Source of the DNA: a virus
Length of the DNA stretch: 64,000 nucleotides
Direction: 5' to 3' (one strand)
IMG/VR virus record: IMGVR_UViG_3300029094_000045
The notes below the pieces were generated by a model, which worked only from the letters and a program-made list of their open reading frames with translations, had not been told where the DNA came from and searched no databases. The position numbers and the translations under genes were made by a program. How positions within the stretch are numbered: the stretch's first letter is position 1; each line of letters starts with the position of its first letter. Below are positions 25,325 through 57,491 of the stretch, piece after piece.

Positions 25325-27410
25325 GAGGGGCGAAACATAATGAAAAAGATCCTGATTACATACGAAGCTTCCATTGAGACTGGTGACAAATTGGAATACG
25401 GAGAAGCTGCCACGACTCTCGATTTTATCACCGACAATATGGCTCTCGAACTCGTAGATACGATTGGTAAACCATACCACTCCTGGAAACCCATTGGACG
25501 AGTTGCAAGGTCTCGGGTTACTGAGATTCTTATCAATCTGGAGCGGCTTCGTGGACGAATCTATGTAGCCAATTCTATTAAGAGCGTCGAAATCATTTCC
25601 GATTCTTAAATGGCGAATAATTTACGCTTAAAAGTTGTGAAATTCAATCAATGGGAACAATTCACCAATTGACTGATACGACTATCGGTTGTACAATGAA
25701 AGGACGAATATCGTGTCACCAGTGAAGGAGTGGAGAACTTCACAGTCGATGTTGAAAACTTTTGAACGACGATTGCAATGCAACAATAATTCATCTTTTC
25801 GATGATAACCAAATTCAATCGCTCAATCATTCTGTACGAAAATCACCAGTGAAAAACAATCGCCAATAAAGCAGTCGTTCGAAGCCAAGCGAGCGACGAG
25901 CGAAGTGTGGCGAGAAAAAGAAAACTGATGGTTATGTAGTAAGGGGTTATAGGGTTAAGAGTAGATTGTTAAGGAGAGAGAAGACCATCCGGGGAACGGA
26001 GTAGAAGGAAGAGGCCATTGAGCCTGAAAGCTGAAAGGAAAAAATTCTATGGCAAATTTAGCACTGGGCACCCACGAGTTCAAACCCGACGAGATGATTG
26101 GGTTGATTAGGCAGTACGATTTCTTTATGCTTTCGTTTGGCGACGATCCGCTTTTGCAGATTCGAGTCCCGACGAGATGGGTTAGACTTGAGATGGCGAA
26201 CAATGGTGTAAGCTATCTTACCTGTCGAGATAAGCGTAAGCGAGACGGACATCTGTTTAAAATCAGCGCCAACAAGTTTGTTTTTGACGTTGACCATAAC
26301 AGCGGACGGCTGAGTGGCAATTTCAAGTTTGACCTTAATGAAACCAATCTTTACGTCGTCATGTGGGGCAGCTCCGACGTGCCAGCCGACGATGATGAGT
26401 GAGTGCATCAGCAGAAAGGAGCGATAAATTGTGGAAAGCGAAAACGTAATGAGAGCCACTGAGGAACGTCCCCGTCTGAGTCGAGAAGAGCAGGAGACCA
26501 TCATAACCACATCTGCGGCCGACGATACGGCTGAAGTGTACACTGCTGACCCGATCTACATGCGAAAGCTGGACAAGCGGGTTGAACAGGACCCTGGCAA
26601 CTACAAGGTCAAGAGCCGCAATACTTACAGTGCGACCTACACGATGCCCAAGCGACTGTTGCAGTTCCGGCTGCCGACTGCGCCTCGTGAACTGACTGAA
26701 GAACAGCGCGCAGAACTCCGTGAACGAATGAAAAAAGCACAAGCGGCTCGACAGAATAAGGCCAGCATCAATTCTCAGCCGAATTCATAAAGAGTTTGAC
26801 TGTATTCCAAACATACATCATGGTTCGGTAATGAAATTACTCTACCGAGACGTGTTAACAGTTTTTTATCGAGACTTTGTAGGAGAAAAATGACCTACTT
26901 TGAAATCGGGGAGGCGAATGAGTATGATACCGCAACGCTTTGACGATACCGCATAGAGACTGCTGTGCAAGTAGCGTCACAACAAAAACACAGTAAACAA
27001 GTAGACAGATTGAGATGAATAGTAAGTCGAGAGATTTACGCAGCTGCCAAAGGCGACTGTAACGAAAAGGTAAGACGAGACAACCAACCCGACCTGGAGG
27101 AGACTACATGTACTGAGGAGCTCGGACGCGCGCGGAGGGCAGAAAAAAAAACGGAACGCCACAGGGAAGAAATGCGTACCAAATGCTCGCGTGTAGAGGT
27201 CAGATACAGACCGAAATCGCGATGAAAGGCGGAAATTATTCCGAATCTGAAGCCTGCTGCACGCCTGCGGACATCACGTGATCGCTCAGGATCCTCCTAA
27301 GGAATAGCACGAATGTGTTTAGATCTCAATCATGCAACAAAAATATATGTTGAAAGAGAGTTGAAAGCTAATGTAGTGAATTAAGATCCGTTATTATCGA
27401 GGCACGATTT

Positions 27411-27680
27411 GTGATGAATAATTGTCCAATACGGATAATGCATTCAGGTCAAACCGAATGTGACGAATTGTTAAGATGGAATACCCATCAGGACAGAAGA
27501 CCGGCAGCCGGATCGGCTAGGAAGGCAGTCCGAAATGATGACTATGAGTAACAAAACCAGGAATAGAACGCAAACTCAAGGGGTAGAAGTCCTAGCAGAG
27601 AACCAAATGAGATGGTCCAAGATCGGGAAAATCGCCTCCAGTGCCCCGAGGCAGCGCTCAAACAGCACTATTTAGATCAC
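27411..27680 (+). ncRNA. conserved structured non-coding element, copy A
   Basis: About 270 nt that align in blocks with copy B at 40219..40476: gtgatgaata; aatgcaYtcaggtYaaaccgaRtgtgacgaattgt; gaaccaaat...gatgag; tttagatcac. The stem cattc/gaatg (27441..27460) shows compensatory changes relative to cactc/gagtg in copy B. It lies in a 1-kb ORF-free, purine-rich region. Confidence 0.4.
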
Positions 27681-27854
27681 AAATCCCCTATTATAATAAT
27701 GAAGGTTGTGATGTTAACAACAAAAGATGGATAAAAGTGAGTACAACCATTTGTCTATATTTACCATTGACAACAACTCATGGTTTGTGCAATACTATTT
27801 ACACAGACGACAAAGTCACTTTTCAATACTTGCAAACGAAAGGAACGAGGTAAA

Positions 27855-29203: not shown

Positions 29204-29281
29204 CCGGGTGTGGCGAAGCTGGTATCGCGCTAGTTTTGGGATCTAGAGATTTCGCCCGTTCGAATCGGGTCACTCGGACCA
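29204..29281 (+). tRNA. tRNA-Pro (anticodon TGG), CCA encoded
   Basis: Acceptor ccgggtg/cactcgg (7 bp including one GU); D stem gcga/tcgc; anticodon stem ctagt/tctag; loop tTTGGGa; T arm gcccg-TTCGAAT-cgggt; then A-CCA. Confidence 0.7.
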
Positions 29282-29423
29282 GTGTGTAGGGTTTCCGCAT
29301 TTTTCCTTACATAACAAACAACTTAGAAACGCCTCCTTTCATTGTGCTGCTTATCACAATCTTTCGATTTCTAAGTTGTCGTGGCTGAAAACGCCGAGCG
29401 GGTACGATAATCCCGTTTTATAT

Positions 29424-29464
29424 GAGGTCAATGATTACTTCTGGGTTTGATTCCCGGAGACCTC
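29424..29464 (+). other. tRNA mini-helix (acceptor stem plus T arm only)
   Basis: gaggtca-(10 nt)-ctggg-TTTGATT-cccgg-agacctc: 6 of 7 acceptor pairs and a 5-bp T stem. At 41 nt it is too short for a tRNA. It sits just 5' of the tmRNA-like gene. Confidence 0.3.
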
Positions 29465-29471
29465 TCTATAT

Positions 29472-29855
29472 GGGCCCGAAAGGTTTTCGACAGGGCTAAG
29501 AAAAAATTACAATTCGCAGGTCGGCCATCACCTTACGAGGCAAAAACAAATAAACGCTAACAACAACAGTTATCGTTGCGCGGCTTGATGCCGTGCCCAA
29601 AACAGCATCCTGATAGGCAGGTAAATGCTTGACGGTTCAAAGAATAAATCCCGGAACCCGATGTAAACGGTAAGAAACACTAGCGTTCTCGGACGTCAAA
29701 ACCGAGTGGTGGAGTGATGTAACAACCGTTACGTCCCTAGGTTTGCTGCGTCGGCGGCATGAATTCCTTTTCAAAATTCTAAATGCTGGCTATTGCGTAA
29801 GAAAATTGTAATTGAGTATTAGTTTTGGACGTGGGTTCGAATCCCACCGGGTCCA
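29472..29855 (+). ncRNA. ssrA: tmRNA (ssrA)-like gene, one-piece, with variant tag ANNNSYRCAA
   Basis: The 5' strand GGGCCCG (29472..29478) pairs perfectly with the 3' strand CGGGTCC (29848..29854) and includes a G3-U70 wobble, the AlaRS identity pair. The conserved 5' motif UUCGACAGGG matches E. coli GAUUCGACGGG. The 3' end GGACGUGGGUUCGAAUCCCACC matches E. coli GGACGCGGGUUCAACUCCCGCC. The tag frame GCU AAC AAC AAC AGU UAU CGU UGC GCG GCU UGA starts about 85 nt from the 5' end, as in E. coli, and encodes ANNNSYRCAA (E. coli ANDENYALAA). Total length ~384 nt. CCA is not encoded. Confidence 0.6.
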
Positions 29856-30264
29856 TAGCGGCGCAAGCCGCAAAGCTAGGTTCGATTCTGTCGGCGTGGA
29901 GTAGCACGTCGGTAGATGGGGTGGCGCAATTCCACCGTGGGTGATCATACTCCCCCTCTGACACATCCATAACGCTCTGACCGAAAATAATAACCATGAT
30001 GCAACGGGAGTAGCTACCCGCCACAGTGGATGTGCATGGCTCTATTATGTGTAGGCGAATATGGCACTGCCTGCGAAAGTGGCATAGATGCTCGGTGCCC
30101 AGAGCATCGGAGAGTGAATTTGAAAGGGCAGCCTTTGAGGATGGACACCATAAGAGACCTATTCGCTTATGTGTTGTATCCACTGACGCGACTGAGTATA
30201 GTGCAGACTTTGTAAGCCGCTTGCTTCTCGCTGATGTCGTTACATGGTTAAATCCTCCTCTCTG

Positions 30265-30342
30265 GGGCTAGTAGCTTAGTCTGGTTAAAGCCGGCAGCTC
30301 ATAACTGCTTGATCGGGGGTTCAAATCCCTCCTGGCCCACCA
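30265..30342 (+). tRNA. tRNA-Met (anticodon CAT), elongator-type, CCA encoded
   Basis: Acceptor gggctag/ctggccc; D stem gctt/aagc; anticodon stem ggcag/ctgct; loop cTCATAa; T arm ggggg-TTCAAAT-ccctc; A-CCA. The anticodon stem lacks the three G-C pairs of initiator tRNAs. Confidence 0.7.
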
Positions 30343-30636
30343 TTTTTAGTAACATTTTGAAAGAAGGTATGAATCATGGCAAATCCGAATATCAAAGAAA
30401 TCGTTGAATGGATGATTGAAAAAGCGAAAGATAGGGCTTCCGATAGCATCGCAGTCATTGATGAAGGAGAAATCGTTAAAGAGTTCGGAGTGGAGTCTGG
30501 ATGGCTTCAGAGCCATGGTCCAGAAATCTATCACGAATGCGATCGGCACTCAGAAGTTTTGGACTCTTTGATTTACACTGGAAATGATAGAGATTATTGG
30601 TCTATTCAGCTTACCATTAACAAGGAGTAAATCAAA

Positions 30637-31329
30637 ATGACTGATAAATATCTCAGTATCATCACGAACTTCGGGTGCCACTACAGCTGCCCTGAGTGTA
30701 TTGTCCGCAATAACAAGCTTAAGATGACACCGACAGTGGAGTATTCCTCTTACGCTCAGCTGTGGCATGTTCTTCATAACGAATGCAATGATTGCGATTG
30801 GGTGTCTGTTTCTGGTGGTGGCGATCCATTGTATCACTGGTGGGAACATCAGGCATGGTGGTTCGGATTCTTCGAGATGTGTTGGCGTTCTTTTCGCAAG
30901 ATTGAGCTGCATACCAGTTACTTTGATGTAGAAAATAATCACGAGATTATGTTGTTTCCGTTTGATAAATTCGACCGTGTTGTCTACCATGTTCACGGGC
31001 TGGATGATCTTGATGAGATTCGTCGTCGAGGCAATGAAATCGTCCGCGTAGTCTTTGTTGTTGATGACGATATGACTGAGGACGAAATCAATGGAATCGC
31101 TGATAATGTAGAAGCGTCAGACCAAATTGACGAGCTTTCGTTCCGGCAGCGTGTGGACGATAACTACGAGGCAACTTATCATCTGCATGATTTCCTGAAG
31201 GCCGGTCATCAGAAACGCTGGTGGTACATTGAACAGTGTGATTACAATATCTACTATCATAACGGTAAGCTGTTCACGAAGTATACCGATATCTTTGATT
31301 CTGAGGCGGTAAGTTATGAAAAAACATAA
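30637..31329 (+). CDS. radical SAM enzyme (QueE-like or RNR-activase-like)
   Basis: N-terminal NFGCHYSCPECI matches CxxxCxxC, and VSGGGDPLYHWW matches the GGE/GGD SAM-binding motif. GCxYSCxxC resembles B. subtilis QueE AGCDYSCSWC. 230 aa with no SPASM-type C-terminal cysteine cluster. Confidence 0.55.
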   Translation: MTDKYLSIITNFGCHYSCPECIVRNNKLKMTPTVEYSSYAQLWHVLHNECNDCDWVSVSGGGDPLYHWWEHQAWWFGFFEMCWRSFRKIELHTSYFDVENNHEIMLFPFDKFDRVVYHVHGLDDLDEIRRRGNEIVRVVFVVDDDMTEDEINGIADNVEASDQIDELSFRQRVDDNYEATYHLHDFLKAGHQKRWWYIEQCDYNIYYHNGKLFTKYTDIFDSEAVSYEKT

Positions 31330-31552
31330 AGATTTATTGCTGGCAGCTTGCGCATCGGCTGTTTCGTTTTTGAGTCTCAATGCCATTTTTGAGAAACTTC
31401 TACGGCACATCTCGCTTGTTCAAATGGCAACAGGAAGTATAAGTTCTCTTTACGGACGTGTCAGCGAGGCGGCTCTTTCGGTATCTGTAGCTCTGTCACT
31501 TGCGATTGGAGCTGTAGTATATATTCTGTTCAAAAATTAAAAGGAGGAACGA

Positions 31553-32464
31553 ATGAAGAATTTCAAAAAGATTTTCGTGGTTTCGTGTGCAATCGTGATG
31601 GCGCTGACCTTTACGGGGTGTACCAAGAAAGAGGTGTATACAATCGAACCTCATGAAACCGCATTTCTGATTTCACTCTCTGAGGGCGGGGAAAATCAGG
31701 CGTCTTTTGAGAGTGAGGCAATGCTCGCCGAGGCAAAGGTGGCAGCCAAGCAGGTATACATTACTTACTCGAAGCGGCATCTGTCACCGACTGACATCCT
31801 TGGTACTTGGGTTCCGGACAACATGTTGGTCATCGTTAATAGAACTCCTGTTACTCGTGAATGGTCCGAGGGCAAGGATAGTGGCACCAGCACTGTCAAT
31901 CAGTCCATCTCTGCCGAAAGCAAGGAGTCTATTGGCTTCTCCGTCGGCATGAACTGCTCTGCTCAGATCTACACTGAAAACGATGCAGTCAAGTTCCTGT
32001 ATTCCTACAACAACAAGCAGCTCTCCGAGATTATGGATACTGAAATCCGTGCGCGTGTAGAAGCTGACTTTGTTGAAAAGTGCGCCAAGTACACCATGAA
32101 TGAGATCCTTGAGAAGAAGGCCGAGATCATGGAGTATGTCCGCAAGGATGTGACTGAGTATTTTGCAGAGCGCGGTATCACGATTACGGTCCTTGGTATG
32201 AAGGATGGCATTGAGTACGACGATGCGTCTGTTCAGGCTGCTATTAACAAGTCCTTTGTGGCCGAGCGCAATGACGAGGCGCAGGAGATTGAGAATCAGA
32301 CCAAGATTTCCAAGGCGAACGCAGAAGCCGAGGCGAATAAAATCATCTCTGAGTCTCTAACTGACCGGCTGATTCAGCAGCAGATGTATGAAAAGTGGGA
32401 CGGTAAGCTTCCGACTTATGTTGGCGGCGATACCAGCGTCCCTGTACTGAACGATATGAAGTAA
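31553..32464 (+). CDS. SPFH (band-7/HflC-like) domain lipoprotein
   Basis: Signal peptide with lipobox ...ALTFTGC; the C-terminal half AEAEANKIISESLTDRLIQQQMYEKWDGKLPTYV is a typical SPFH/band-7 Ala/Glu-rich helix. Confidence 0.5.
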   Translation: MKNFKKIFVVSCAIVMALTFTGCTKKEVYTIEPHETAFLISLSEGGENQASFESEAMLAEAKVAAKQVYITYSKRHLSPTDILGTWVPDNMLVIVNRTPVTREWSEGKDSGTSTVNQSISAESKESIGFSVGMNCSAQIYTENDAVKFLYSYNNKQLSEIMDTEIRARVEADFVEKCAKYTMNEILEKKAEIMEYVRKDVTEYFAERGITITVLGMKDGIEYDDASVQAAINKSFVAERNDEAQEIENQTKISKANAEAEANKIISESLTDRLIQQQMYEKWDGKLPTYVGGDTSVPVLNDMK

Positions 32465-32504
32465 CCTGTGTAAGCAGTGGCGGCTCGGAAAGACGAGCAT
32501 ATAT

Positions 32505-32587
32505 GTTTCGGTGCTGGAATCGGCAGACAGGGGAGTCTCAAAAACTTCTGCGCAAGCATGTGGGTTCAAGTCCCATCCGAAACACCA
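32505..32587 (+). tRNA. tRNA-Leu (anticodon CAA), type II, CCA encoded
   Basis: Acceptor gtttcgg/ccgaaac; anticodon stem ggagt/acttc; loop cTCAAAa; long variable arm; T arm tggg-TTCAAGT-ccca; A-CCA. Confidence 0.65.
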
Positions 32588-32717
32588 GGGCGGACGTTTC
32601 ACCGCCTCTTTTCATACATCTCCTTTCCCTCACAGATGCTTAGTGGTTCATGGGTTCCAGACATGAATCACCGTGACTGAACAAGTCGTAGCAGGTACGC
32701 AATCCTGCTCTTGATAA

Positions 32718-32802
32718 GCCATAGTGGTGGAACTGACATACACTTCCGTTTTAGGGGCGGACGCCGCAAGGATTGAGGGTTTGAATCCCTCCTATGGCAC
32801 CA
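32718..32802 (+). tRNA. tRNA-Leu (anticodon TAG, reads CUA/CUG), type II, CCA encoded
   Basis: Acceptor gccatag/ctatggc; anticodon stem tccgt/gcgga; loop tTTAGGg; 13-nt variable arm; T arm gaggg-TTTGAAT-ccctc; A-CCA. The anticodon is 5'-UAG-3', not the amber-suppressor CUA. Confidence 0.6.
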
Positions 32803-32958
32803 ATCTCGTATGGGTAGGATCTTTAGCGGTCAGATCCGGCCGCGCCTGTGCGAGATACCACCCCGAAAGGGGAAGTTATCCATGATGTCCTTTCTACGCC
32901 CGCTATTCTCGGCTCGCTCGAAAGAGTGCAGCGTGCCTTTGTAAGCCGAGTATCTTAT

Positions 32959-33031
32959 GCAGCCGTAGTGTTAGTGGTTAGCACACCTGCTTCCCAAGCA
33001 GAGAGGGCGAGTTCGAATCTCGTTGGCTGCT
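32959..33031 (+). tRNA. tRNA-Gly (anticodon CCC)
   Basis: Acceptor gcagccg/tggctgc; D stem gtgt/gcac; anticodon stem cctgc/gcaga; loop tTCCCAa; T arm gcgag-TTCGAAT-ctcgt; CCA not encoded. Confidence 0.6.
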
Positions 33032-33207
33032 CTAGAGCTCCTGTGTTTGCGTTGCCCAGCTGTTAGTAATTAGTGTGTGTTGTTATGGTTCATAAAACCT
33101 CCTTTCCGCTTGGCGATATAGGAACTCATTTACCTCTTTTCTTCCTTATTATTCCCGGCTCCATGGCGCATGCTGTGGCAATAAGACGTAGTAAGCCGGG
33201 TTCTTAT

Positions 33208-33279
33208 GCAGCGGTCGTATAACGGCTAGTACATCGTCCTTCCAAGTCGATGGCGTGGGTTCGACTCCCATTCGCTGCT
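33208..33279 (+). tRNA. tRNA-Gly (anticodon TCC)
   Basis: Acceptor gcagcgg/tcgctgc; D stem gtat/gtac; loop cTTCCAa; T arm gtggg-TTCGACT-cccat. Its upstream flank (gtaagccgRg...cttatgcagc) is duplicated with the CCC gene, so this is a tandem duplication that has diverged at the anticodon. Confidence 0.6.
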
Positions 33280-33455
33280 CTACAGGTACTACACCTGAAG
33301 GGGTATGGCAAGATATTTAGCGGGTATACACGTTAAATAAGTCTACTGTATGAGATAAAAGATAGAAACCATAGGAGTGGCTTCCTAATGGGACAGGATG
33401 TGTGGGTTGGCTGCCCTGAGATGAGTCTGATAACCTGTATAAAACAGACTACCGT

Positions 33456-33501
33456 GGGATAACTCGGTGTTGAAGATTGAGTTCAATTCTCAATCATCCC
33501 A
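33456..33501 (+). other. second tRNA mini-helix (acceptor-like stem plus 7-bp T hairpin)
   Basis: gggataa-(12 nt)-gattgag-TTCAATT-ctcaatc-atccc-a; no D or anticodon arms. Confidence 0.25.
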
Positions 33502-33748
33502 ATTCCACCGCGAGGTGGAAGACAGCTTTGCCCATTAGGTCTTTAACAAAATGGGGAATAGGTACATGGTGGTAAAAGGACGATCAAATAATAGCCATGA
33601 CTTCTTTGCTTGACGCCATAAGACTCGGATAGAATGGTCCGATGGGAAGTTGTCCTGCTTGGAGAATCGGGAGTGCAGGTGTACCTAATTTTATATGTAT
33701 ACAAATTTATTTCATATATTAGGAGATGCTGAATTATGGGAGGTTAAT

Positions 33749-34222
33749 ATGATAATTAAAGAAACACCAGAATATAACGTATACCAAAACAAGGATGGTC
33801 GAACAAGAGTTTACATAAAGTCAACACAAAAAATTATGTCATACCCTAAATTTATCATGGAACAAAAACTTGGCAGGTCTCTATTGGCAGATGAAGAGGT
33901 TCATCATATTGACGAGGATTTCACAAATAATGATCCTAGCAATTTGATTGTTTTAGCAAAAGATAAACATCTTGCTATTCATTTGAATGAAAAAACAAAA
34001 TATTACGATAAAATGATGACGTGTCCTATATGCGGAAAAAATTTTTTGTGGACAGCAAAATCACAATCTACATTTTACAGGACAAAAAATCGTAGAATGA
34101 AAAGAAATAAAACCAATACTGTAAATGACAGTCCGTTTTGTTCAAGAGAATGCGCTGGACACTATTCTCAAGAGCAAAAGATTCGCTACCATGGCGAAAA
34201 TGGCAGTACGCTTCGGTCTTAA
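33749..34222 (+). CDS. HNH homing endonuclease with a C-terminal zinc ribbon; its 3' end overlaps the tRNA-Leu(TAA) gene
   Basis: EEVHHIDEDFTNNDPSNLIVLAKDKHLAIH is an HNH motif, followed by CPICGKN...CSRECAGH. Start assigned to the ATG at 33749 after GGAGGT. The TAA stop lies inside the tRNA anticodon loop. Confidence 0.55.
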   Translation: MIIKETPEYNVYQNKDGRTRVYIKSTQKIMSYPKFIMEQKLGRSLLADEEVHHIDEDFTNNDPSNLIVLAKDKHLAIHLNEKTKYYDKMMTCPICGKNFLWTAKSQSTFYRTKNRRMKRNKTNTVNDSPFCSRECAGHYSQEQKIRYHGENGSTLRS

Positions 34223-34270
34223 AAACCGATGTCGAGAGGCGTGCGGGTTCAAGTCCCGCTGGTAGCACCA
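34185..34270 (+). tRNA. tRNA-Leu (anticodon TAA), type II, CCA encoded
   Basis: Acceptor gctacca/tggtagc; D stem gcg/cgc with a 12-nt loop; anticodon stem tcggt/accga; loop cTTAAAa; 13-nt variable arm; T arm gcggg-TTCAAGT-cccgc; A-CCA. Confidence 0.65.
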
Positions 34271-37097: not shown

Positions 37098-38573
37098 ATG
37101 GCGTTCTCTGGTATTAAAACCAAGCTTGGTTCGCCCGAGTGTGAAGAATATTTCAACTCGATTGTTTACCGAAATGACTTCAAGGATGAAGACAATACCA
37201 TTGTGACGATTCTTCGTGCGATGATGAACGAGAAGCGGCTGGCAACTTTTAATGCAAAACCTGACGTGAAGGGCAAGATGCAGGTCCAGACTATCAACAA
37301 GGAAATTCGCTTTACGGGCGAGACTGCAAAAATTGACGCTGGCTACTATGGTGGCGCACATGGCCCTTTCAGTCAGGCAATTATCGGCCTCTGGTTGGTC
37401 TTCATTCCGAACAAAAATGCTTCGGACTACATCAAACAGGTCAAGGAATTCGACGAAGACTATAAGAAGCTTGGTTGGTCTCGTCTGGAAGATGTCTCTC
37501 TCTATCTGGATCGTAGCGGTGAGATTCTGGCGTATCAGAATGAAAAGAAGCAGGCCACAATTCTGTTTGCGCCGACGGCAAAGCGGATTCAGACCATGCA
37601 GATGGCGGCGAGTTGTATTTCTCGAATCTTTCCGTGGGCGTTCAAGGATTGTTCGCTGTCTGAGGACGAAATTGCATTCCTGAAACTGTTGAGTGAGCAG
37701 AAGTATACGGAGTTTAACGCAGCTATGGAAAGAAGCTACGCTGCGTACAACTTCTATGTTAAAAAGCTCCAGACTATTCTGCATGGGTTCTGTGACCAGA
37801 ATTATTCTCGCATGATCAAGAATCAGGAAGAGCGGGTTCGTCGTGCAGAGCGGACTGTTGATGACTATTATCGCAACGTAAGAAGCGCTCAGGACAGCCT
37901 CGAAGAAGAGCAAGGGAAGCTTCTGAGCCTGAGAAATCGAGCTTGTAACGGCGGAGAAGATGAAAAGGAGCTGATTGATTTCTTCTCTTCGAATAAGTCA
38001 ATCACTGTTCTCGGTAAATCCGGACGAGATCTCCGTCTTGGTGTGAATTGTTACCTCAATGACTTCAACGAAGATGTCTTCAAGCAGTATGTTGAGAAAC
38101 AGGATAGGGTGTCCAGTTACATCTATAGCGCAAGCCCTTATGGTCTGGAACTGACGAAGAAGTTATTCCTCGCTATTTGGAAGGAGCATCGCTTCAACTT
38201 GAGAGTTTATTGCGAATGGATTCTGTATGACGATTGCAATGTTGAAGCGGTTTCGCAGTCCAATATGGGAGGTCGTGACGACCTGATGGAAGACCGTATT
38301 CCTCAGCCTCATATCGATGATTACCAGTGCTTCAGAGGCTACACCGGCATTCTGAACGACCTTGCACGTTCTCGTGATTATATCGGAATCATGAGTACAT
38401 TGTTGAGTTCTTCCTCTTCTATCAATTGGACCGATTCTACAGTTGTTTCCAAGCTGATGAAACGGTTGTTTGAAACCAATAAGGATACGAAGTGTCTTGA
38501 GGATAAGGATGGCAACCATTATACCGTGGCAGAGGTCGTTAAAATTCTTGAAGACGAGGCAAAGGCGGCGTAA
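37098..38573 (+). CDS. 491-aa protein of unknown function between the Ubl-like and JAB genes (candidate E2-like or adaptor component)
   Basis: Co-directional and tightly spaced within the cassette. No recognisable motif. Confidence 0.4.
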   Translation: MAFSGIKTKLGSPECEEYFNSIVYRNDFKDEDNTIVTILRAMMNEKRLATFNAKPDVKGKMQVQTINKEIRFTGETAKIDAGYYGGAHGPFSQAIIGLWLVFIPNKNASDYIKQVKEFDEDYKKLGWSRLEDVSLYLDRSGEILAYQNEKKQATILFAPTAKRIQTMQMAASCISRIFPWAFKDCSLSEDEIAFLKLLSEQKYTEFNAAMERSYAAYNFYVKKLQTILHGFCDQNYSRMIKNQEERVRRAERTVDDYYRNVRSAQDSLEEEQGKLLSLRNRACNGGEDEKELIDFFSSNKSITVLGKSGRDLRLGVNCYLNDFNEDVFKQYVEKQDRVSSYIYSASPYGLELTKKLFLAIWKEHRFNLRVYCEWILYDDCNVEAVSQSNMGGRDDLMEDRIPQPHIDDYQCFRGYTGILNDLARSRDYIGIMSTLLSSSSSINWTDSTVVSKLMKRLFETNKDTKCLEDKDGNHYTVAEVVKILEDEAKAA

Positions 38574-40197: not shown

Positions 40198-40218
40198 TAA
40201 AATCGCAAATAAATAATC

Positions 40219-40476
40219 GTGATGAATAGTTGCTCTTTTATAAGCAATGCACTCAGGTTAAACCGAGTGTGACGAATTGTCAGGACGAGGTACCCCAGAA
40301 GGGAGGGCACGTGCGCGTGCCATGACGCTCGTCACCTGGTGAATTACGAGGCCACCTCGAAAATGCGAACCAAATACAACGATGAGACGTAGCAGCAAAC
40401 GCGGCCGTGATCTAACGTGCCGGCTAACAAGGCTAACAGAGCTCAGCGGATGCAGGAACCAACCTGTTTAGATCAC
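40219..40476 (+). ncRNA. conserved structured non-coding element, copy B, directly upstream of the RT gene
   Basis: Homologous blocks with copy A. Stem cactc/gagtg at 40250..40269. Internal palindrome ggcacgtgcgcgtgcc. Ends ~30 nt before the RT start codon. Confidence 0.4.
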
Positions 40477-40505
40477 GATTTTTTAAATTACATAAGGAGA
40501 AATAT

Positions 40506-41738
40506 ATGTACATCACATATTGGAATCCGCCTAATACACGGCAGATTACTTTTGATGAAATCATCGCAGGCGTACAGAATGTTGAAGCGCTGCATTATGG
40601 CGGCAGCACCACCTCGACGATTACGGTGTGTCGTAATGACCTTACTCCGCGCCTGCAGAAAATCACCAATATCCCAGATATGATCGCAAAACTTACGGAG
40701 TTTAATCAGAAATATGCAGGACTCGAAGCGTGCGACCTCGCTGCTCATTATGAACATTTTGAGATTCCTAAGAAGTCCGGCGGCTGGCGTCCTATCGATG
40801 CTCCGGATAAGGAATTGTCTGATGCTCTGGTTGAGCTGCGCGAATTACTTCACAGCTTCATGATCGCAGACTATCACACAAATGCTTTTGCTTATATTCC
40901 GAATCGTAGTTTTATCGACGCAGTCCGCAAACATCAGGCTGGTCACATTAAAACGAAAAAGAATGAAGAAACCGGAATACAGACGACAGTGACTTTTGAA
41001 AATCACTGGGCAGTGAAGTTTGACTTGCATGGATTCTTTCCGAGCACAACGCCGGATTTTCTTCTTGGGATGTTGAGCATTATTTATCCGTTCGCTCTGA
41101 TTATGAAGGATGAACGGGGGCACGAACAGCTTGCCAACGCCTTAAAACTTTGTTTCCTCCACGGTGGTTTGCCGCAGGGGACGCCTATCAGTCCATGGCT
41201 TACCAATGTTATGATGATTCCATTTGATCATCTTATCACGCGCAAGCTGTGTTACGGCTATAAGGCAAAAGACGGTATCGAACGTGAATTTACCTATACC
41301 CGTTACGCTGACGATATGATGTTTAGTTGTTATCACAGTTTTGACCCGATGGAGATCCAGCAAATCGTCATCGATGGTTTGAACTTCATCCATGCACCAT
41401 TTACTTTAAATGAAGCAAAAACTCATTACGGCAACCGCCATTCCAGTAAAAACTGGTGCCTTGGTTTGATGTGGAACAAGGATAACCAGATCACTGTTGG
41501 ATGGCGAAATCTGAAGATGTTTCGGTCTGCCATGAAAAACTACATTGATGCGAAAAAGCGTGGCGAAACGTGGGAGCTTGAAGATCTTCAGTCGTTTATG
41601 GGCAAGCTTAATTACTATCATATGGTCGAACCCGATGTAATTGATGATTTGGTTCATCGTTACAATGAAAAATTTGGTGTTGATGTGATGGCTATGCTCA
41701 AAGACGATCTTCGTCTTAAAGATGGCGAAGCCGCGTAA
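40506..41738 (+). CDS. reverse transcriptase of retron/group-II type
   Basis: RT motifs in order: IPKKSGGWRPIDAP (1/2), FDLHGFFPS (A), GLPQGTPISPWLTNVMM (B'), YTRYADDMMFS (C, YxDD), then an LG region. QGxxxSP plus RYADD is retron/group II-like rather than DGR-like (IGxxxSQ). Confidence 0.7.
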   Translation: MYITYWNPPNTRQITFDEIIAGVQNVEALHYGGSTTSTITVCRNDLTPRLQKITNIPDMIAKLTEFNQKYAGLEACDLAAHYEHFEIPKKSGGWRPIDAPDKELSDALVELRELLHSFMIADYHTNAFAYIPNRSFIDAVRKHQAGHIKTKKNEETGIQTTVTFENHWAVKFDLHGFFPSTTPDFLLGMLSIIYPFALIMKDERGHEQLANALKLCFLHGGLPQGTPISPWLTNVMMIPFDHLITRKLCYGYKAKDGIEREFTYTRYADDMMFSCYHSFDPMEIQQIVIDGLNFIHAPFTLNEAKTHYGNRHSSKNWCLGLMWNKDNQITVGWRNLKMFRSAMKNYIDAKKRGETWELEDLQSFMGKLNYYHMVEPDVIDDLVHRYNEKFGVDVMAMLKDDLRLKDGEAA

Positions 41739-42893
41739 GGAGAATATGATGATTAAGCAGTATAAGAATGTCCTTGATGGTATCACGATGGAAGAATTCA
41801 TGGATGCTATTAAAAACGAAAAGAATGTTACAGCGAGAACGGTGTCTGCAATCTTATTTTCGATGATTGATGATCGTGTTCAGGAGGCCATCGATACGGC
41901 CAAAGAAAACATTCCAGACATTCTGATGGCAACGAAAGCACCTCCAGTGGTGGATGATTTCACTGAAGGATACGAGCTGGATGAAATTCGTGGCATCTGG
42001 CGTGTCGTGGACTCTACATGGTATCGGAATAAGAAATTCTATCTGATGAAGGCAGAACAAGATCCCGATTACTGTGGACCTATCGCGGTGGACGAGAACG
42101 GAAAGCTTGTTGCGGAAGAACTGTGCGACGGATTCGATTGCGACTTTGAAGATGCCGCAGACGAATATTTTGACGAAAACAAATTTAAAGGTTTCGGCCT
42201 TATCGGAGAGGAGGATATGTACTAATGGTTGAGCTTATGTGTCGTGATGGCAAAATCTCTCAGAGCGACCTCGAAAAACTAGCAGATACGATTTATTATT
42301 CTACCGGTATCGAGGTCAACGTGATTGCGGAACAGGACCGACGAGCCATGGTGTTCTGGGGGCCGGAAGATGTAAAGGGGATTATTGAGTCCTCGCACAT
42401 CCAGTCTATTGACCCGGACAACACGAGTATCTGTGACACAATCGTCGCTACGGCAGAGCCTAAGATTCATCAGGCGATGCTGGAGGCCGGTAATGATGTT
42501 CTGGTGGATGAAGTGTACGAGCTGGCCGAGTCGTTAGGAGAACATTTCGACGACTCAGATGTCGAGTTGGGTGATTCTTTATACGACGATTTTGAAGTTT
42601 CTTCCATGAAATAAAACAACGTAGATAAAAATCATTTTGTATATCACTCTATAAGAGCGAGCATTACACCTAAGGTGGATGTTTAGAAGAATACTAAGGA
42701 CCGGCCGCTGCGCTCTGATCAATCCCATCGTCGCGCAGCTTGGCCTCGAAACAAATCCTACGTCGAGTGCAATTTCAACTGCTCTCGATCCAATGAAATC
42801 GCTTCGCTCAGATATTGGATCGCTCGCATTGGAAATTTCCCTCGATAAACGGAGCTACGGATTTTAGAAAATGATTTTTGAAAGGATATAAAA

Positions 42894-43163
42894 ATGGAGT
42901 CGATAATGTATAAGCCGGGTGATAGAGTTACGATTCGTTCGGATTTGGAAGAGTACGAATGTTACTGTATGTTGTCTGGCCCCAAAAAAGAGAAAGGAAT
43001 GTTCTGCACCGTGCCGAGCATGGTTGCACAGGCCGGGAAAGTACTTACAATCGAAAAAATTCTAGAAGACGGAAGAGGTTATCAGCTTAAAGGATGTAAT
43101 CTCGGTTGGACGGATTCTATGTTTGAGTCAGCAAATGAATGTATTTGCGATTCGCTGCTGTGA
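42894..43163 (+). CDS. tandem-family paralog 1 (PGDRVxIRxDL...WTDxMFE...ECICDSLL)
   Basis: 89 aa. It carries the N-terminal domain shared by the 11 tandem paralogs and the family's C-terminal tail. Confidence 0.55.
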   Translation: MESIMYKPGDRVTIRSDLEEYECYCMLSGPKKEKGMFCTVPSMVAQAGKVLTIEKILEDGRGYQLKGCNLGWTDSMFESANECICDSLL

Positions 43164-43172
43164 GGTATTGAG

Positions 43173-43442
43173 ATGAAATATTTCCACGATATTGGTGATG
43201 CGGTTGTCGTAAAATCCGATCTTCATACTGGTATTGATTATTACATGAAGTCTGGTCCGGAAACTCCAATATATAATAATGTCACCGAGGAAATGAAAAA
43301 GTATGCTGGTAAAATTGTTCACATTGCGGACCACATAAACGGGCAGTATTTGATTAAAGAAGACGATTGTGAATGGATATGGACAGATGACATGTTCGAG
43401 AATGTTTCGGATGAGGAATGTTTTTGTGTGAGCCTGTTATGA
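43173..43442 (+). CDS. tandem-family paralog 2 (ends EECFCVSLL)
   Basis: Carries the shared N-domain and tail. Confidence 0.55.
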   Translation: MKYFHDIGDAVVVKSDLHTGIDYYMKSGPETPIYNNVTEEMKKYAGKIVHIADHINGQYLIKEDDCEWIWTDDMFENVSDEECFCVSLL

Positions 43443-43460
43443 TAGAAAGGGTGAGATAAA

Positions 43461-44285
43461 ATGGCCGAAGCTGTTAAAAGGAAAAAATATGAAAAGTTGG
43501 TCCAATTCCCCAAAGTCTCTGATAGCACTCACTTCACCATGAGTGAAGAAGAACTTCAGAAGATGATTCGGGATATTGCGGCTGCGGCTCAGAAGTCTAG
43601 AAAGCGTAAACCTAAACCTACATATAGTCTCTATACGAAGGATGGACGCAGAAAGCCCACGCCAGCCGATCCGATTCGTTCGAAAGAAGATTTCTGGAAA
43701 CTGGCTGATTATTTGGGTTCTACTGGAGATCCTAAATTCCAGCTGCGGAATAAGACGATTTTTATTTTTGGCTGTAGTATCGGCGTTCGCTGCGGCGATT
43801 TGTTGAACCTAAAAACAGGAGATGTTTATGAGGCGAATGGTTCGGTGAAAGAACATCTCGAACTAATGGAAGAAAAAACGCGCAAAATCAACGTTTGTAA
43901 AATTCCCAAAATGGCCGTGGATGTTCTGGAACAGTATCGTGATGAACAGAAATTCTCTATCGATCAGCAGAATTATCTATTCCGCAGCCGTAAAAATGGT
44001 TCTCTAAATGTGCGCAGTTTCTATCACATCTTGAAGAACGCAGGCAAAGTATGCGGGCTGGATATTGACCTGTCTACTCATACGATGCGTAAAACTTATG
44101 CAATGGCAGCTCTTCAAACAGCAGATGGAACAGAGGCGTCTGGCGATACGTTGGAGTTGCTTCAGGTGAAATTCAAACACAGTGATAAGCGCGTTACTAT
44201 GCGATACATTAAGGCGGATCAGGATAAAATCGATAAGATGTCCAATCGCGTTTCAGAATGGTTTGAGGATGGAGGAACTAAATGA
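43461..44285 (+). CDS. tyrosine recombinase (integrase-family catalytic domain only), embedded in the paralog array
   Basis: Box I GVRCGDLLNLK; box II LSTHTMRKTYA (HxxR); catalytic Tyr in KRVTMRYIK. 274 aa with no N-terminal arm-binding domain. Its stop overlaps the start of paralog 3. Confidence 0.6.
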   Translation: MAEAVKRKKYEKLVQFPKVSDSTHFTMSEEELQKMIRDIAAAAQKSRKRKPKPTYSLYTKDGRRKPTPADPIRSKEDFWKLADYLGSTGDPKFQLRNKTIFIFGCSIGVRCGDLLNLKTGDVYEANGSVKEHLELMEEKTRKINVCKIPKMAVDVLEQYRDEQKFSIDQQNYLFRSRKNGSLNVRSFYHILKNAGKVCGLDIDLSTHTMRKTYAMAALQTADGTEASGDTLELLQVKFKHSDKRVTMRYIKADQDKIDKMSNRVSEWFEDGGTK

Positions 44286-44551
44286 CGGATTATTTATATC
44301 ATCCCGGCGATAGGGTTTATGTTCGACCTGATCTTACGGATACTGAAGAGTATAAAATGTTGTCTGGGAAAAGTGAAGGCGAGTCTTGGGGAATCTACTC
44401 TTGGATGAAGAACTACGCAGGAAAAGAGATTGTTATTCTAAAAATTGAATTAGCCCGTGGCGTTTACACAGCACAAGGAATTAATGGCTGCATTTGGTCT
44501 GATGAAATGTTTGAGCCTCTAAACGAATGTTTCTGCGGCTCGTTATTATGA
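44282..44551 (+). CDS. tandem-family paralog 3 (ends NECFCGSLL)
   Basis: Carries the shared N-domain and tail. Confidence 0.55.
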   Translation: MTDYLYHPGDRVYVRPDLTDTEEYKMLSGKSEGESWGIYSWMKNYAGKEIVILKIELARGVYTAQGINGCIWSDEMFEPLNECFCGSLL

Positions 44552-44561
44552 GGACCTGTAA

Positions 44562-44843
44562 ATGAAGAACACCAAAAAATATATGTATCAACCCGGAGAC
44601 ATTGTTATTGTTCGAAAGGATTTAGATAAATATAAAAGCTACAAAATGTTTGCTGGCCCATATAAAGATAAAACATGGGGCATTCATCCGGATATGTGCC
44701 TTATGAGGGGACAAGCGGTTCATATTTCTGGGATTCATGAATATGGTGCTTATTTGATTTCGGAAACTGATGAATTTGTTTGGACAGATGAGATGTTTTC
44801 TGGATTAGCATACAATGAATGTTGTTGTAATTCGCTACTATAA
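44562..44843 (+). CDS. tandem-family paralog 4 (ends NECCCNSLL)
   Basis: Carries the shared N-domain and tail. Confidence 0.55.
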   Translation: MKNTKKYMYQPGDIVIVRKDLDKYKSYKMFAGPYKDKTWGIHPDMCLMRGQAVHISGIHEYGAYLISETDEFVWTDEMFSGLAYNECCCNSLL

Positions 44844-44867
44844 AATTAAACGACGGGGGAGATAGAA

Positions 44868-45143
44868 ATGGCATCGAGGTATTATCGATATAAAAACGGA
44901 GAAGAGGTTATTGTTCGTGCTGATTTAGATTATAATACTCGTTATTATATGCGTTCTGGTTATCGAGCTGACGAACAGTATACAATGCTTAGCTATGGCC
45001 AATCTCAGAAATTAGGAAAACCTGTACATATCAAAGACAAACGAGGTGGGCGATACATTATTGAAGAAGACTACGGCGGTTCTGCTTGGACTGACGATAT
45101 GTTTGAGTCTTCGAATGAATGTTGTTGCAGTTCTTTGCTGTGA
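44868..45143 (+). CDS. tandem-family paralog 5 (ends NECCCSSLL)
   Basis: Carries the shared N-domain and tail. Confidence 0.55.
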   Translation: MASRYYRYKNGEEVIVRADLDYNTRYYMRSGYRADEQYTMLSYGQSQKLGKPVHIKDKRGGRYIIEEDYGGSAWTDDMFESSNECCCSSLL

Positions 45144-51564: not shown

Positions 51565-51824
51565 CATGAAGCATGCAAAAGGTGAAATCCTTAGTGCATA
51601 TCAGCGCTTAACGAAAAGTATCAAATATGGAGATGCATACTGGTCTGAAAAAGCAATGATAAGTGATGCTCTGAGTGATTACTTCAATCGGATAGAGAGC
51701 AAGAAAGTCGTAATCGATCCAAAATATAAAAGCTACAGATGTCCAAAGTGCAATACAGCATTAATTGGTCAATATGATCACTACTGCGGACAATGTGGTC
51801 AGAAATTGGACTGGAGGATTAAAA

Positions 51825-53303
51825 ATGATCAATATTAACCCAATGCTGCTGTGTGACTTCTACAAGACAACTCACAGTAAGCAGTTTCCGGCCGGCACCA
51901 CCAAGCTGGTCAGTTACTTTACTCCTCGTATGAGCCGTCTGGATGGCGTGGATGAAGTCGTCGTGTTCGGCATTCAGGCATTCTGCAAGGATTATCTGGT
52001 GCAGTATTTCAATGACAACTTCTTCGACGAACCAAAGTGTATTGTAATTCCTCAGTATAAGCGATATCTGGATGCGACCATTGGCAAGGATGCTTACGAT
52101 CTGAGCAAGATTGCAGCACTACATGATCTGGGATATCTTCCTGTTGAAATCAAGGCTCTGCCAGAAGGTACTCGTTGCCCGATCCATGTGCCGTTCCTTG
52201 AGATGAGCAATACGCACCCTGATTTCGCATGGGTTCCGCAGTTCCTCGAATCTTTTACGAGTTCTGAGCTGTGGCATCCGATGATTTCTGCAACGGTCGG
52301 AACTCTGTATCGCGATATCGTGGACAAGTATTACGATGAAACCGTTGAAGAGGGTGTGCCCCATGCTCGTGCTCTGGGTGATTTCAGCTTCCGCGGTCAG
52401 GAGTGTATGCAGTCGGCAGTTAAGTCAAGCGCCGGTTGGTGTCTGAGTTTTCTGAATACGGCTACTGTACCTGCGATTCCGTATCTGGAAGAAATGTATC
52501 GCTGCAATTGTGAAGAAGAGCCTGTTGCGTTTGGCGCTGTTAGCACAGAGCATAGTGTGATGTGTTCTAACTTCGCAGTCGATGGCGATGAGATCACTTT
52601 CATCCGCCGGGCGCTGACTGAGCTGTATCCGAATATGAGTTTCAGTATGGTGTCTGATTCCTATGATTACTGGAATCTGGTCGATAATATTCTGCCGCAG
52701 CTCAAGGATGAAATCATGGCGCATAATGGCACGCTGCTGATTCGTGGCGACTCTGGTGACCCGGTCGAAATCGTTACGCAGACCGTCTATCATCTGTGGG
52801 ACATCTTCGGCGGCACAGTCAATAGCAAGGGTTATAAGGTGCTCGACCCTCATGTAAAGGCTCTGTATGGAGACTCTATTACTGTGCAGCGCTGTGAAAA
52901 GATTTATGCCGAACTCAAAGCACACGGTTTCGCCTGCAACAATGTAAGTCTCGGCGTTGGTTCCTTCTCCATGCAGTGTATTGAACAGAATGGGCAGCTG
53001 AAACCGTTCACCCGTGATACGTTCGGCATGGCAGTCAAGGCAACTTATGGCGTGGTTAACGGCAAGGAGATCCAGATCTTCAAAGACCCAAAGACCGATA
53101 CCGATCACTTCAAGAAAAGTCTGAAGGGTATGTGCTATGTCACCAAGGATGATTCTGGGAAGCTGATTTGCACAGATGGTCTGATGAATCATGCCGCGCA
53201 TTCGGATGGGAATCTTCTGCAGACCGTATTCCGTAATGGCGCGATGATCAAGGAGTACAGTCTGAAGGAAGTCCGCGACCGACTGTGGAAAGGGAAGTTT
53301 TAA
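51825..53303 (+). CDS. nadV: nicotinamide phosphoribosyltransferase (Nampt/NadV) family enzyme; candidate NadV or nicotinamide-ADPR transferase (Namat)
   Basis: Family signatures LLCDFYKTTHSKQFP, PVEIKALPEG, GDFSFRGQE, VSDSYDYWN, IRGDSGDPVE, KGYKVLDPHVKALYGDSIT match the Nampt blocks NTDSYK.TH, IKAVPEG, GYRG, VSDSYD, IRPDSG, KGYK..P...GDG. Start taken at the ATG at 51825 after GGAGG. Confidence 0.7.
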   Translation: MININPMLLCDFYKTTHSKQFPAGTTKLVSYFTPRMSRLDGVDEVVVFGIQAFCKDYLVQYFNDNFFDEPKCIVIPQYKRYLDATIGKDAYDLSKIAALHDLGYLPVEIKALPEGTRCPIHVPFLEMSNTHPDFAWVPQFLESFTSSELWHPMISATVGTLYRDIVDKYYDETVEEGVPHARALGDFSFRGQECMQSAVKSSAGWCLSFLNTATVPAIPYLEEMYRCNCEEEPVAFGAVSTEHSVMCSNFAVDGDEITFIRRALTELYPNMSFSMVSDSYDYWNLVDNILPQLKDEIMAHNGTLLIRGDSGDPVEIVTQTVYHLWDIFGGTVNSKGYKVLDPHVKALYGDSITVQRCEKIYAELKAHGFACNNVSLGVGSFSMQCIEQNGQLKPFTRDTFGMAVKATYGVVNGKEIQIFKDPKTDTDHFKKSLKGMCYVTKDDSGKLICTDGLMNHAAHSDGNLLQTVFRNGAMIKEYSLKEVRDRLWKGKF

Positions 53304-55365: not shown

Positions 55366-57491
55366 AATTATGCCATATTGTGTTACGGTTGCGCTCGTTG
55401 GTCACATTTATGTCGATACGGATGATTCGGATGAGGCGGTGGAAATCGCAAATTCACATCCAGAAGATATTAAATGGTCTAAAAATTATACAGTTACGAA
55501 TTGTGTGGAGTCAGATTGAAATCATAAACGAGGAATAAAATGCACTACGTTAATGGAGATATTATTTTGGACGCTGATGAAGCGAGACGATTTCAGCATC
55601 TTCTAAGGCATCCAAACGTAGAGGAAGTACAAAGGAAGTTAAAGGCTTGTAACGATGCCCTCGCTGAAATGAATTATCGGGAGAACGAAGATGGGACTAC
55701 TTCTTTTGATATTGACATTGAGGTGTAAATCATGCGCTACAGAGTAGATGTGAAAGTCGAGGGATACATTCTGGTTGAAGCAAAAGATCCTTTTGAAGCT
55801 CATAAAATCGTAGACATGAATCAAGAAGACATCGTTTGGGATAACTGGATGACATATACAAGCTGTAAAAAGATTCAAGAAACCTAATATGGAAGAGATT
55901 ATTATTTTCGGTTAATGTCCGAATGCTAGGTAATTGGCGGTACTAGGGTAGACATAACCGCTACCAGAATGAAAATTGTAAGGAGGCTATCATATGATTC
56001 CAGTCATTGAAACCGACGCCAAGATTAAAATACCAGGTGGATATCTTGTATGCATTAAAACTGGAGCCGCAGACGATTACCCGGGCTTTGGTGTCTTTTA
56101 TTCTAAAGATGGGAAAACGGCTAATTGGGATGACCTGATTTCAATAACGGAACATAATTCTACGTTTGATAATATCCAAACGGTCGGTTATCGGCAGGGA
56201 CAAGAAAATTATGTCGCCGCTATTCGTTTTGAAGACGGAGATATTATTGAAAATTGAGGTGTAGATATGAAAAATCCATGCCAGTATTGCGTAGCACCAG
56301 AGCGTCACCCGGGTTGCCATGATCATTGTGAAAAGTTGAAAAGCTATCATGAGAGCGATGAATATAAAAAGTTATGTGACTACAAGGATACATATTTTAA
56401 GACCATTTCTGTAAGCTCTGTTGGAATCAATCGAAGAATGAGATATTTAGCCAAAAAAAGATGTAGTTTACATAGATACAAGTACGCTATGAAGTGAGGC
56501 ATATACAATGTGGGTTGTAATTGAAAATAAGTACGCTAAAGATAAGAAAATTGGTTACGCAGAACTTGAAACCATTGATAAAAATAATGGTGATGAATGG
56601 TTCTCTGTAATGTATCGAATCAATGAAGATAACGATCTTGATGTTTATGTACAGTACGAAATCGATGAAGATGAAATAGAAAAAATCATAAAAACTCTTG
56701 CAATTTATCTTGAAGATGAAGGACTTTGGGAGGACTGATTATGTGGGCCCTAAGAAAAGTTCATGCACTGCACGATGGTTGGGGCTGGGTCTGGAATGGA
56801 TCATTCCATCATAAGGACGTGTTCGTTGATAAAAACGAGAACCCAAAAGAAATCTTCTGGCAGGAATGTCAGATGTTTTTCTCAGGATTACTTAAGTAGG
56901 TGCGAGATTGTAGATGATGGCGATATTCTAGAACTTCAGCTAAAGGATTCCGGGGAACCGGTTCTCGCTATGACTATGTAAAGAGGAATGAATGTGGAAA
57001 AGTATATTTTGATCGCCGTTAACGAACGGAAAATTTTCGAACCTGATTATTTTGAAACTCTTGATGAGGCTCAAGCGGAGATGAGAAAACGTGTTGAGCA
57101 AATCGTGAGTCAATCTGGTGGAGAAACGAAAGTTGATTTTGAAATCAACAATGACAGTGCCTATGTGACAGCCGCTCATTTTGAGCTTGGCGATGGGAAT
57201 TGGGATTTTGCAATCTGCGAGGTGGTTGATACGAAATACCCTGAAAATATTAAAGACGCCATGTTTACTTCTGTGTGGGACGGTGGTTTTGAGATCACTG
57301 CGAAATGCAAGGTGAATACGGAAACAAAAGAGATTTTCGATATCGAAGTGTCGGAATCAAATGCAGACATGGTGGAACATCTTGACGAAGAATATGTTAC
57401 GATTGACGGCGTGGATTATTCAGCTGCAAATCATGATGACATCGATGAAGACGATAAAGAAACTTATTGGTATGAATAAGAGGTATACGAT

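Follow-up and report, generated by a model that had tools for sequence, protein, structure and literature searches.

Retrons are bacterial anti-phage systems in which each reverse transcriptase (RT) is paired with one RNA, and they underlie the production of single-stranded DNA inside cells for genome editing. In the cyclic oligonucleotide-based anti-phage signalling system (CBASS), Cap2 and Cap3 conjugate and release the C-terminus of a nucleotidyltransferase. Thirteen retron types are described by Mestre et al. (PMC7736814), with no mention of ThiF, JAB or ubiquitin, and Staphylococcus jumbo phages carry a retron-like RT, MarsHill gp206, of unknown role (bioRxiv 10.1101/2020.12.14.422802). 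Here we describe a locus in a 64-kb stretch of viral DNA (IMG/VR record IMGVR_UViG_3300029094_000045; hereafter the window), which is a portion of a ~145-kb genome and to which our copy counts for this phage refer. The locus encodes a 410-aa RT of the retron clade and carries a structured noncoding RNA (ncRNA) in several copies, one of them directly upstream of the RT gene. Our preferred reading, to which we give a probability of roughly 60%, is a phage-borne retron-type system, i.e. one RT that works on several cognate template RNAs by a retron-type mechanism.

The RT gene starts at an ATG preceded by AAGGAG, and its product matches Pfam RVT_1 (E 2.8e-15). It carries the boxes LPQGTPISP and YTRYADD, neither of which varies among 20 aligned family members (44-82% identity), in agreement with the initial annotation of this DNA, which had recognised the 410-aa open reading frame (ORF) as an RT by its QGxxxSP and RYADD boxes. 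The best PADLOC matches are all retron RT models, RT_II-A at 4e-37 followed by XIII, III-A and I-A near 1e-30. Among NCBIfam models, retron_St85_RT is the best (141.9 bits, cut-off 235), ahead of group II TIGR04416 (64 bits, cut-off 300) and Drt2 (39.3 bits, cut-off 390). A sequence search of the PDB returned an entry with the bare name "Retron", followed by Ec83, Ec78 and St85-family proteins, with the group II RT GsI-IIC ranking behind. The AlphaFold model of the RT (predicted local distance difference test 83.9, predicted template modelling score 0.76) was compared with the PDB by Foldseek; the RTs of retrons Eco7/Ec78, Ec83 and Ec86 came out on top, at 1e-17 to 1e-13, followed by GsI-IIC (1e-12), the defence-associated RT DRT2 (5.5e-10), the RT of a diversity-generating retroelement (DGR; 2.5e-9) and DRT9 (7e-9). 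The RTs of group II introns, DRT2, DGRs and DRT9 thus all rank below those of retrons as relatives, and retrons I-A/II-A (Ec78/Eco7, Ec83, St85/Sen2) together with Ec86 are closest by both sequence and fold. On sequence comparison and predicted fold, the retron type is the best-supported class for this RT.

The two motifs that mark retron RTs occur in altered form: throughout the family, NAxxH of region X appears as (D/S/T)AxxKHQ and VTG of region Y as NWxLG. At H143 and G320 the family alignment shows no variation; they correspond to the NAxxH histidine and the VTG glycine, the most conserved residues of these motifs (Mestre et al., PMC7736814). The RT also has a family-specific N-terminal extension of ~75 aa. 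When bacterial genomes were scanned, full-length relatives (residues 1-405, 36-65% identity) were found only on contigs of metagenome-assembled genomes (MAGs) of gut Clostridia, whereas with ordinary bacterial retron-like RTs the identity falls sharply to <=31% and covers residues ~77-390 only. This sharp drop, together with an N-terminal ~75 aa of its own, therefore makes the RT family a discrete clade. The clade is large and common in human-gut samples; a homologue search with the RT at E <= 1e-5 gave 3,455 proteins, RTs of other retron clades probably among them, and up to 1,600 member sequences fall in a single cluster. A search for a second RT within the 64-kb window found none. In one related phage (L135), a second, unrelated RVT_1 gene (448 aa, 11000..12346) lies 2 kb downstream of the retron-type RT and beside a DUF6273 gene; it may encode a DGR RT.

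As in retrons, the RT is directly preceded by an ncRNA on its own strand and has accessory genes next to it. Two covariance models were used, the first built on the 5' domain of the RNA and the second (R2) built from 31 diverse matches. Scanning the window establishes four copies, B, A, C and D, all on the + strand (Table 1); the first model scores them at 91, 89, 44 and 21 bits, respectively, and the next-best match in the window after these four reaches 18 bits with the second model. The initial annotation had seen two copies, one upstream of the RT and one 'orphan', from block homology between ~260 nt preceding the RT and 27411..27680. The homology itself agrees with an alignment of 27403..27685 to the ~270 nt upstream of the RT, good over ~75 nt at the start and ~20 nt at the end but not in between, and with a degenerate 27-nt core motif that has exactly two occurrences in the window and none in 100 shuffles. 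The count had to be revised, the 'orphan' being one of three extra copies. Two checks had also been suggested there. The covariance model gave the four copies, and Rfam, retron msr and group II families included, gave no match at any copy with gathering thresholds on the window and permissive ones on the RNA regions.

All four copies share one layout of 250-325 nt: a 5' segment a1, an invariant G, two hairpins, a variable segment, UUUAG and a 3' segment a2. In every copy, a1 pairs with a2 over 8-18 bp, an end-to-end pairing on which the initial annotation had not remarked, and each copy has an a1/a2 pair of its own. The G stands directly 3' of a1, and UUUAG (in relatives also UUCAG or UCAAG) directly before a2. 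Retron RNAs likewise have terminal inverted repeats a1/a2, a G after a1 and hairpins on the 5' side that precede a template segment. A short linker, CGAAuuGU or similar, is conserved after the hairpins in the upstream regions of related loci, and these loci keep the RNA plan constant while the sequence changes. The predicted fold of copy B has a z-score of -3.4. D-type copies have longer closing helices (11-18 bp), and their consensus fold retains a1/a2, both hairpins and one more GC-rich stem.

Covariation was assessed over ~30 related phage loci and strongly supports both hairpins and the closing helix. Aligning all lineages with MAFFT left the hairpins of different groups out of register, and a model-guided alignment of the 31 matches was used instead. 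In this alignment, which leans towards the modelled structure, 96.4% of cells in hairpins 1 and 2 are paired and 14 of 16 pairs have changed on both sides. As the alignment was fitted to the structure, the fair comparison is with slid controls, in which the 3' partners were shifted by 1-3 columns; only 24-39% of cells are then paired. For the closing helix, an ungapped alignment of 24 diverse copies covering all four copy types has 86.5% of cells paired and double changes in 12/12 pairs, against 31-49% in slid controls; a2 was placed as the best stem preceded by AG, which leaves the pairs nearest the G partly paired by construction. The UUUAG context and the a1/a2 covariation are independent of how a2 was placed. 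The two arms change in step between copies, as in ATCGTGAT/ATCACGAT, GATTTGTGAT/ATCACAAATC, GTTTCTGTAAT/ATTACAGAAAC and others. Of the columns in these 24 copies, only two are invariant, the G that follows a1 and the G that precedes a2, and the hairpins keep a few fixed bases (GCA...UGU and an NAA loop). The paired substitution that the initial annotation had pointed out (cactc/gagtg versus cattc/gaatg) is present, GCACTCAGG..CCGAGTGT in B corresponding to GCATTCAGG..CCGAATGT in A, and lies in a hairpin predicted by the minimum-free-energy folds of both copies. Layout and strong covariation thus bear out the proposal of a retron msr/msd-like RNA, and the opposite outcome that had been considered, a lack of conserved structure under covariance analysis, is not what was found.

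The segment between handle and UUUAG behaves differently. It is 150-240 nt long in the related loci and 170-240 nt in the four copies of the window, and it is not alignable between lineages. In copy B its divergence outpaces that of the RT gene (67-85% identity in the segment where the RT is 95-97% identical in nucleotides, and ~60% where the RT is 88% identical), with many of the changes preserving small hairpins; in D the excess divergence is small (86-99%). U is markedly scarce in the segments of B, A and C, which have 13-14% T against 27.5% for the window, but not in that of D. No stop-free frame longer than in shuffles was found on either strand in 19 RNAs, and the variable segments match nothing else within the 64-kb window (blastn-short, word size 9). 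A stretch in B, GTGATCTAA (40408..40416), is complementary to the 3' TTAGATCAC, and in the 80%-identity group (L004 and relatives) ATCATGAT, ~50 nt before a2, can pair with a1. Such internal mimics of the end-pairing partners suggest that alternative pairings may form.

Table 1. Features of the RT locus and of the four ncRNA copies, in window coordinates.
Feature	Position	Strand	Evidence or remark
Promoter-like site TTGAAA-17-TATGAT	26900..26928	+	~80 nt upstream of C; consensus match only
ncRNA copy C	27008..27331	+	tandem, 75 nt ahead of A; 43.9 then 65.0 bits, E 1.8e-11
Copy C, a1	27008-27016	+	GATTGAGAT
Copy C, G	27017	+	
Copy C, variable segment	27078..27316	+	
Copy C, UUUAG	27318-27322	+	
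Copy C, a2	27323-27331	+	ATCTCAATC
ncRNA copy A	27406..27685	+	79-89 bits over two covariance models
Copy A, a1	27406-27415	+	GATTTGTGAT
Copy A, G	27416	+	
Copy A, variable segment	27476..27670	+	
Copy A, UUUAG	27671-27675	+	
Copy A, a2	27676-27685	+	ATCACAAATC
Conserved 491-aa protein, first gene of module	37098..38573	+	long coiled coil, possible E2/RWD-like domain
JAB/MPN+ metallopeptidase-like protein, 303 aa	38588..39499	+	JAMM motif, PADLOC JAB 1.4e-4
E1-like (ThiF family) adenylating enzyme, 226 aa	39517..40197	+	Pfam ThiF 1.6e-19
ncRNA copy B	40215..40480	+	directly upstream of RT; 80.7-91.3 bits over two covariance models
Copy B, a1	40215-40223	+	
Copy B, candidate priming G	40224	+	
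Copy B, hairpin 1	40229-40248	+	
Copy B, hairpin 2	40249-40270	+	
Copy B, variable segment	40285..40465	+	
Copy B, UUUAG	40467-40471	+	
Copy B, a2	40472-40480	+	
RT, 410 aa, retron clade	40506..41738	+	RVT_1, PADLOC, NCBIfam, PDB and Foldseek matches
ncRNA copy D	42627..42879	+	0.9 kb downstream of RT; 21 bits with first model, 37.5 bits with second, E 1.4e-5
Copy D, a1	42627-42638	+	AAAAATCATTTT
Copy D, G	42639	+	
Copy D, UUUAG	42863-42867	+	
Copy D, a2	42868-42879	+	

A Bro-N/anti-repressor gene lies 95 nt downstream of copy A, and the promoter-like site ahead of C could drive the C-A tandem pair, judging from its consensus match. A fifth candidate copy at 56582..56660 (16.5 then 11.6 bits) was taken as a chance match because it has no a2 partner and its sequence is coding-like. 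A 62-aa ORF (42679-42867) sits inside copy D; it is probably spurious, since D lengths differ by non-multiples of 3 among close relatives.

The arrangement was then followed through 80 related loci on viral contigs (from human-gut phages ~75-150 kb in size, with RT identity between 41% and 98%), all of which, like every locus examined, belong to a single phage lineage. In these 574 kb the second model gave 143 matches at E <= 0.1, all flanking the RT and on the RT strand. Related loci carry one copy directly upstream of the RT and 1-3 tandem copies downstream (1 + 3 in L075-L080), and distant metagenome and MAG loci follow the same pattern (1 + 3 in L138, 1 + 2 in L143). The RNA upstream of the RT is present in every lineage, even where its sequence has wholly changed, and D-type copies occur in most related loci. 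In L084, L090, L111, L122 and L133, the C-A tandem pair likewise precedes the Bro-N gene, at an unchanged position. Copies keep their positions even where RT identity is no more than 80-84%. Homogenisation of the RNA handles within a genome is not seen, copy A of one phage being closer to the copy A of another than to copy B of its own genome.

The linkage of the RT to three upstream genes is constant. The order ~490-aa protein, JAB, E1, RNA, RT is found in 80/80 viral loci, and the three upstream genes were also present in every further context examined, one of which was reached through a JAB homologue of 38% identity; one contig (L141) stops just past the E1 gene, with the RT outside its sequence. 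The linkage still holds where the first gene has fallen to 24% identity, and the genes downstream vary. The gene for an LPD18 protein, which overlaps the RT stop codon, is placed outside the module because only 4/80 loci carry it.

We propose that the system works as follows. The two covarying hairpins probably form a handle bound by the RT, and with the RT on this handle the G that adjoins the a1/a2 duplex would prime through its 2'-OH. Copying would start at the G of UUUAG and proceed 5' through the variable segment, and each RNA would yield its own RNA-linked single-stranded DNA. As protein partners, the ~490-aa protein, JAB and E1 are the most likely candidates, whether they regulate the RT or act as effector. 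Phages of gut Clostridia that have diverged deeply retain the module, and its benefit is therefore probably to the phage itself, in conflict between phage and host or between phages; its behaviour is not that of a dispensable defence island.

Several points weigh against this reading. For no defined retron type does the RT reach the curated cut-off, and of NAxxH and VTG it retains the H and the G alone. The variable segment folds into several short hairpins without the single long msd stem-loop, and although the stems of D-type copies are longer, they do not make up one single stem. That one RT serves all four RNAs is an assumption, because the handles of C and D have diverged. That the RT synthesises multicopy single-stranded DNA (msDNA) on these RNAs is a step that we infer. 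The E1/JAB linkage may be inherited gene order only, since all loci come from one phage lineage. Finally, our literature search returned no retron with more than one ncRNA or with a link to E1/JAB, nothing on phage retrons with several RNAs, and no RT linked to E1 and JAB.

A route other than that of retrons, as in DRT2 or DRT9, is an unlikely explanation, yet it fares best among the alternatives. The RNAs would still be templates, copied from a protein-primed or de novo start, possibly by rolling circle, into concatemeric DNA or a new gene. The locus resembles DRT2 (UG2) in having a single RT with a structured ~270-nt ncRNA immediately upstream, and the DRT2 RT is a significant structural match; the U-poor segments of B, A and C, the extra N-terminal domain of the RT, and the internal a2-like or a1-complementary repeats such as that in B, which could support template jumping, would also suit such a route. 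However, the Drt2 model reaches 39 bits against a cut-off of 390, and DRT2 and DRT9 are outranked by retron RTs in every comparison. The stop-free frames are not beyond chance on either strand in the 19 RNAs, i.e. there is no endless reading frame as in DRT2, several RNAs accompany the RT, and the invariant G beside the end-closing helix is the geometry of retron priming.

Less likely again is a role of the RNAs as structured elements in regulation or processing (leaders, stabilisers or small RNAs, for example), with no reverse transcription and the RT no more than a neighbour. A and C do lie 13 kb away from the RT, several copies stand just upstream of genes (Bro-N for A, the RT for B, an array of small ORFs for D), and the DNA product is one that we infer. 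Mere neighbourhood accords poorly with 143/143 matches flanking the RT on its strand, with an RNA upstream of the RT in every lineage despite complete sequence change, and with the reproduced a1-G...a2 layout of retrons.

Non-autonomous retroelements similar to short interspersed nuclear elements, spread through the phage genome by the RT, would account for dispersed and tandem copies that share a 5' domain and one RT. This is very improbable, as the copies occupy the same positions in phages with RTs 80-84% identical, every copy type has its own a1/a2 and variable segment, and the flanks are inverted repeats internal to the RNA rather than target-site duplications. A group II intron or a DGR is hardly credible: group II RTs also have the QGxxxSP and YADD boxes, TIGR04416 does match, and DGRs are common in gut phages, but the TIGR04416 score of 64 bits compares with a cut-off of 300, the element has only 250-325 nt, no second copy of any variable segment stands as a target repeat within the 64-kb window, and Rfam finds no intron RNA domains at gathering or permissive thresholds, including the domains V/VI beside the RT that the initial annotation had held to be the contrary case.

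Under the preferred retron-type reading, the system still differs from described retrons. The RT clade, a1/a2, the G and the hairpins are those of a retron; a single long msd stem, one RNA per RT and an effector of known type are not found. Unlike bacterial retrons, the phage system is a conserved module of a large phage, its RT has 2-4 or more ncRNAs, some in tandem and some 13 kb off, its template segment is multi-hairpin, and the RT has NAxxH/VTG reduced to H and G and an additional N-terminal domain of ~75 aa. In place of the accessory genes of the 13 described types it has E1-like, JAB and ~490-aa proteins. MarsHill gp206 is similar in that a large phage of virulent type carries a retron-like RT with a noncoding region upstream, but it has 501 aa with a 200-aa N-terminal domain, and neither a defined ncRNA nor an E1/JAB module was reported for it (bioRxiv 10.1101/2020.12.14.422802).

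Among the neighbouring genes, two are of kinds also found in type II CBASS. The E1-like gene, whose stop codon lies 18 nt ahead of ncRNA B, matches the PADLOC models of CBASS 'E1-E2' (Cap2) at 1.3e-17, with Uba5, MccB and MoeB as PDB matches, and the JAB gene matches Cap3 models (1.4e-4). The JAMM motif E69...H128-S-H130-x7-S138-x2-D141 is invariant in 24 JAB homologues, 3 of which give weak matches to Prok-JAB. The observation of E1/JAB genes beside the RT, made in the initial annotation, is thereby substantiated by ThiF, PDB, JAMM-motif and PADLOC evidence. The 491-aa protein has a confident predicted structure without a convincing structural relative; an E2 within it is at best a weak fold match, and its invariant QPHI...C411 resembles the HPN...Cys signature of E2 enzymes. 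In contrast to CBASS, the E1 is a stand-alone protein of 226 aa and the adjacent polymerase is an RT, and neither a cGAS/DncV-like nucleotidyltransferase nor a CBASS effector was found among the Pfam and PADLOC matches of the neighbouring genes.

A more far-reaching version is possible but doubtful: the RT and an array of interchangeable templates could produce a repertoire of single-stranded DNAs, with the RT or its DNAs controlled by the set of E1, JAB and possibly E2 in the way Cap2 and Cap3 control the CBASS cyclase. If true, a multi-template retron would be seen for the first time, and so would a link of reverse transcription to E1/JAB chemistry, a previously unseen coupling of an RT with ubiquitin-like conjugation enzymes; the system would be a core phage function rather than host defence. 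A conserved phage RT that serves several RNAs would be a retron working on the virus side of the conflict, and a natural RNA handle that accepts many templates could find use in multiplexed DNA production.

Further features of the window lie outside the module. Downstream of the RT, five paralogous ORFs of ~90 aa (42894..45143, + strand; 34-47% identical), all ending in C-x-C-x-SLL, flank a 274-aa tyrosine recombinase (43461..44285), and their order relative to the recombinase varies between related phages; the first of them starts 15 nt past the end of ncRNA D. A type-P5 twister ribozyme is found at 22298..22376 on the + strand (50.7 bits, gathering threshold 37.6), and a transfer-messenger RNA (29472..29858, tag ANNNSYRCAA) lies with seven tRNA genes (Pro, Met, 3 Leu, 2 Gly) in 29204..34270 (+). 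A nicotinamide phosphoribosyltransferase and a PhoH-like protein are encoded at 51765..53303 and 14626..15981, respectively.

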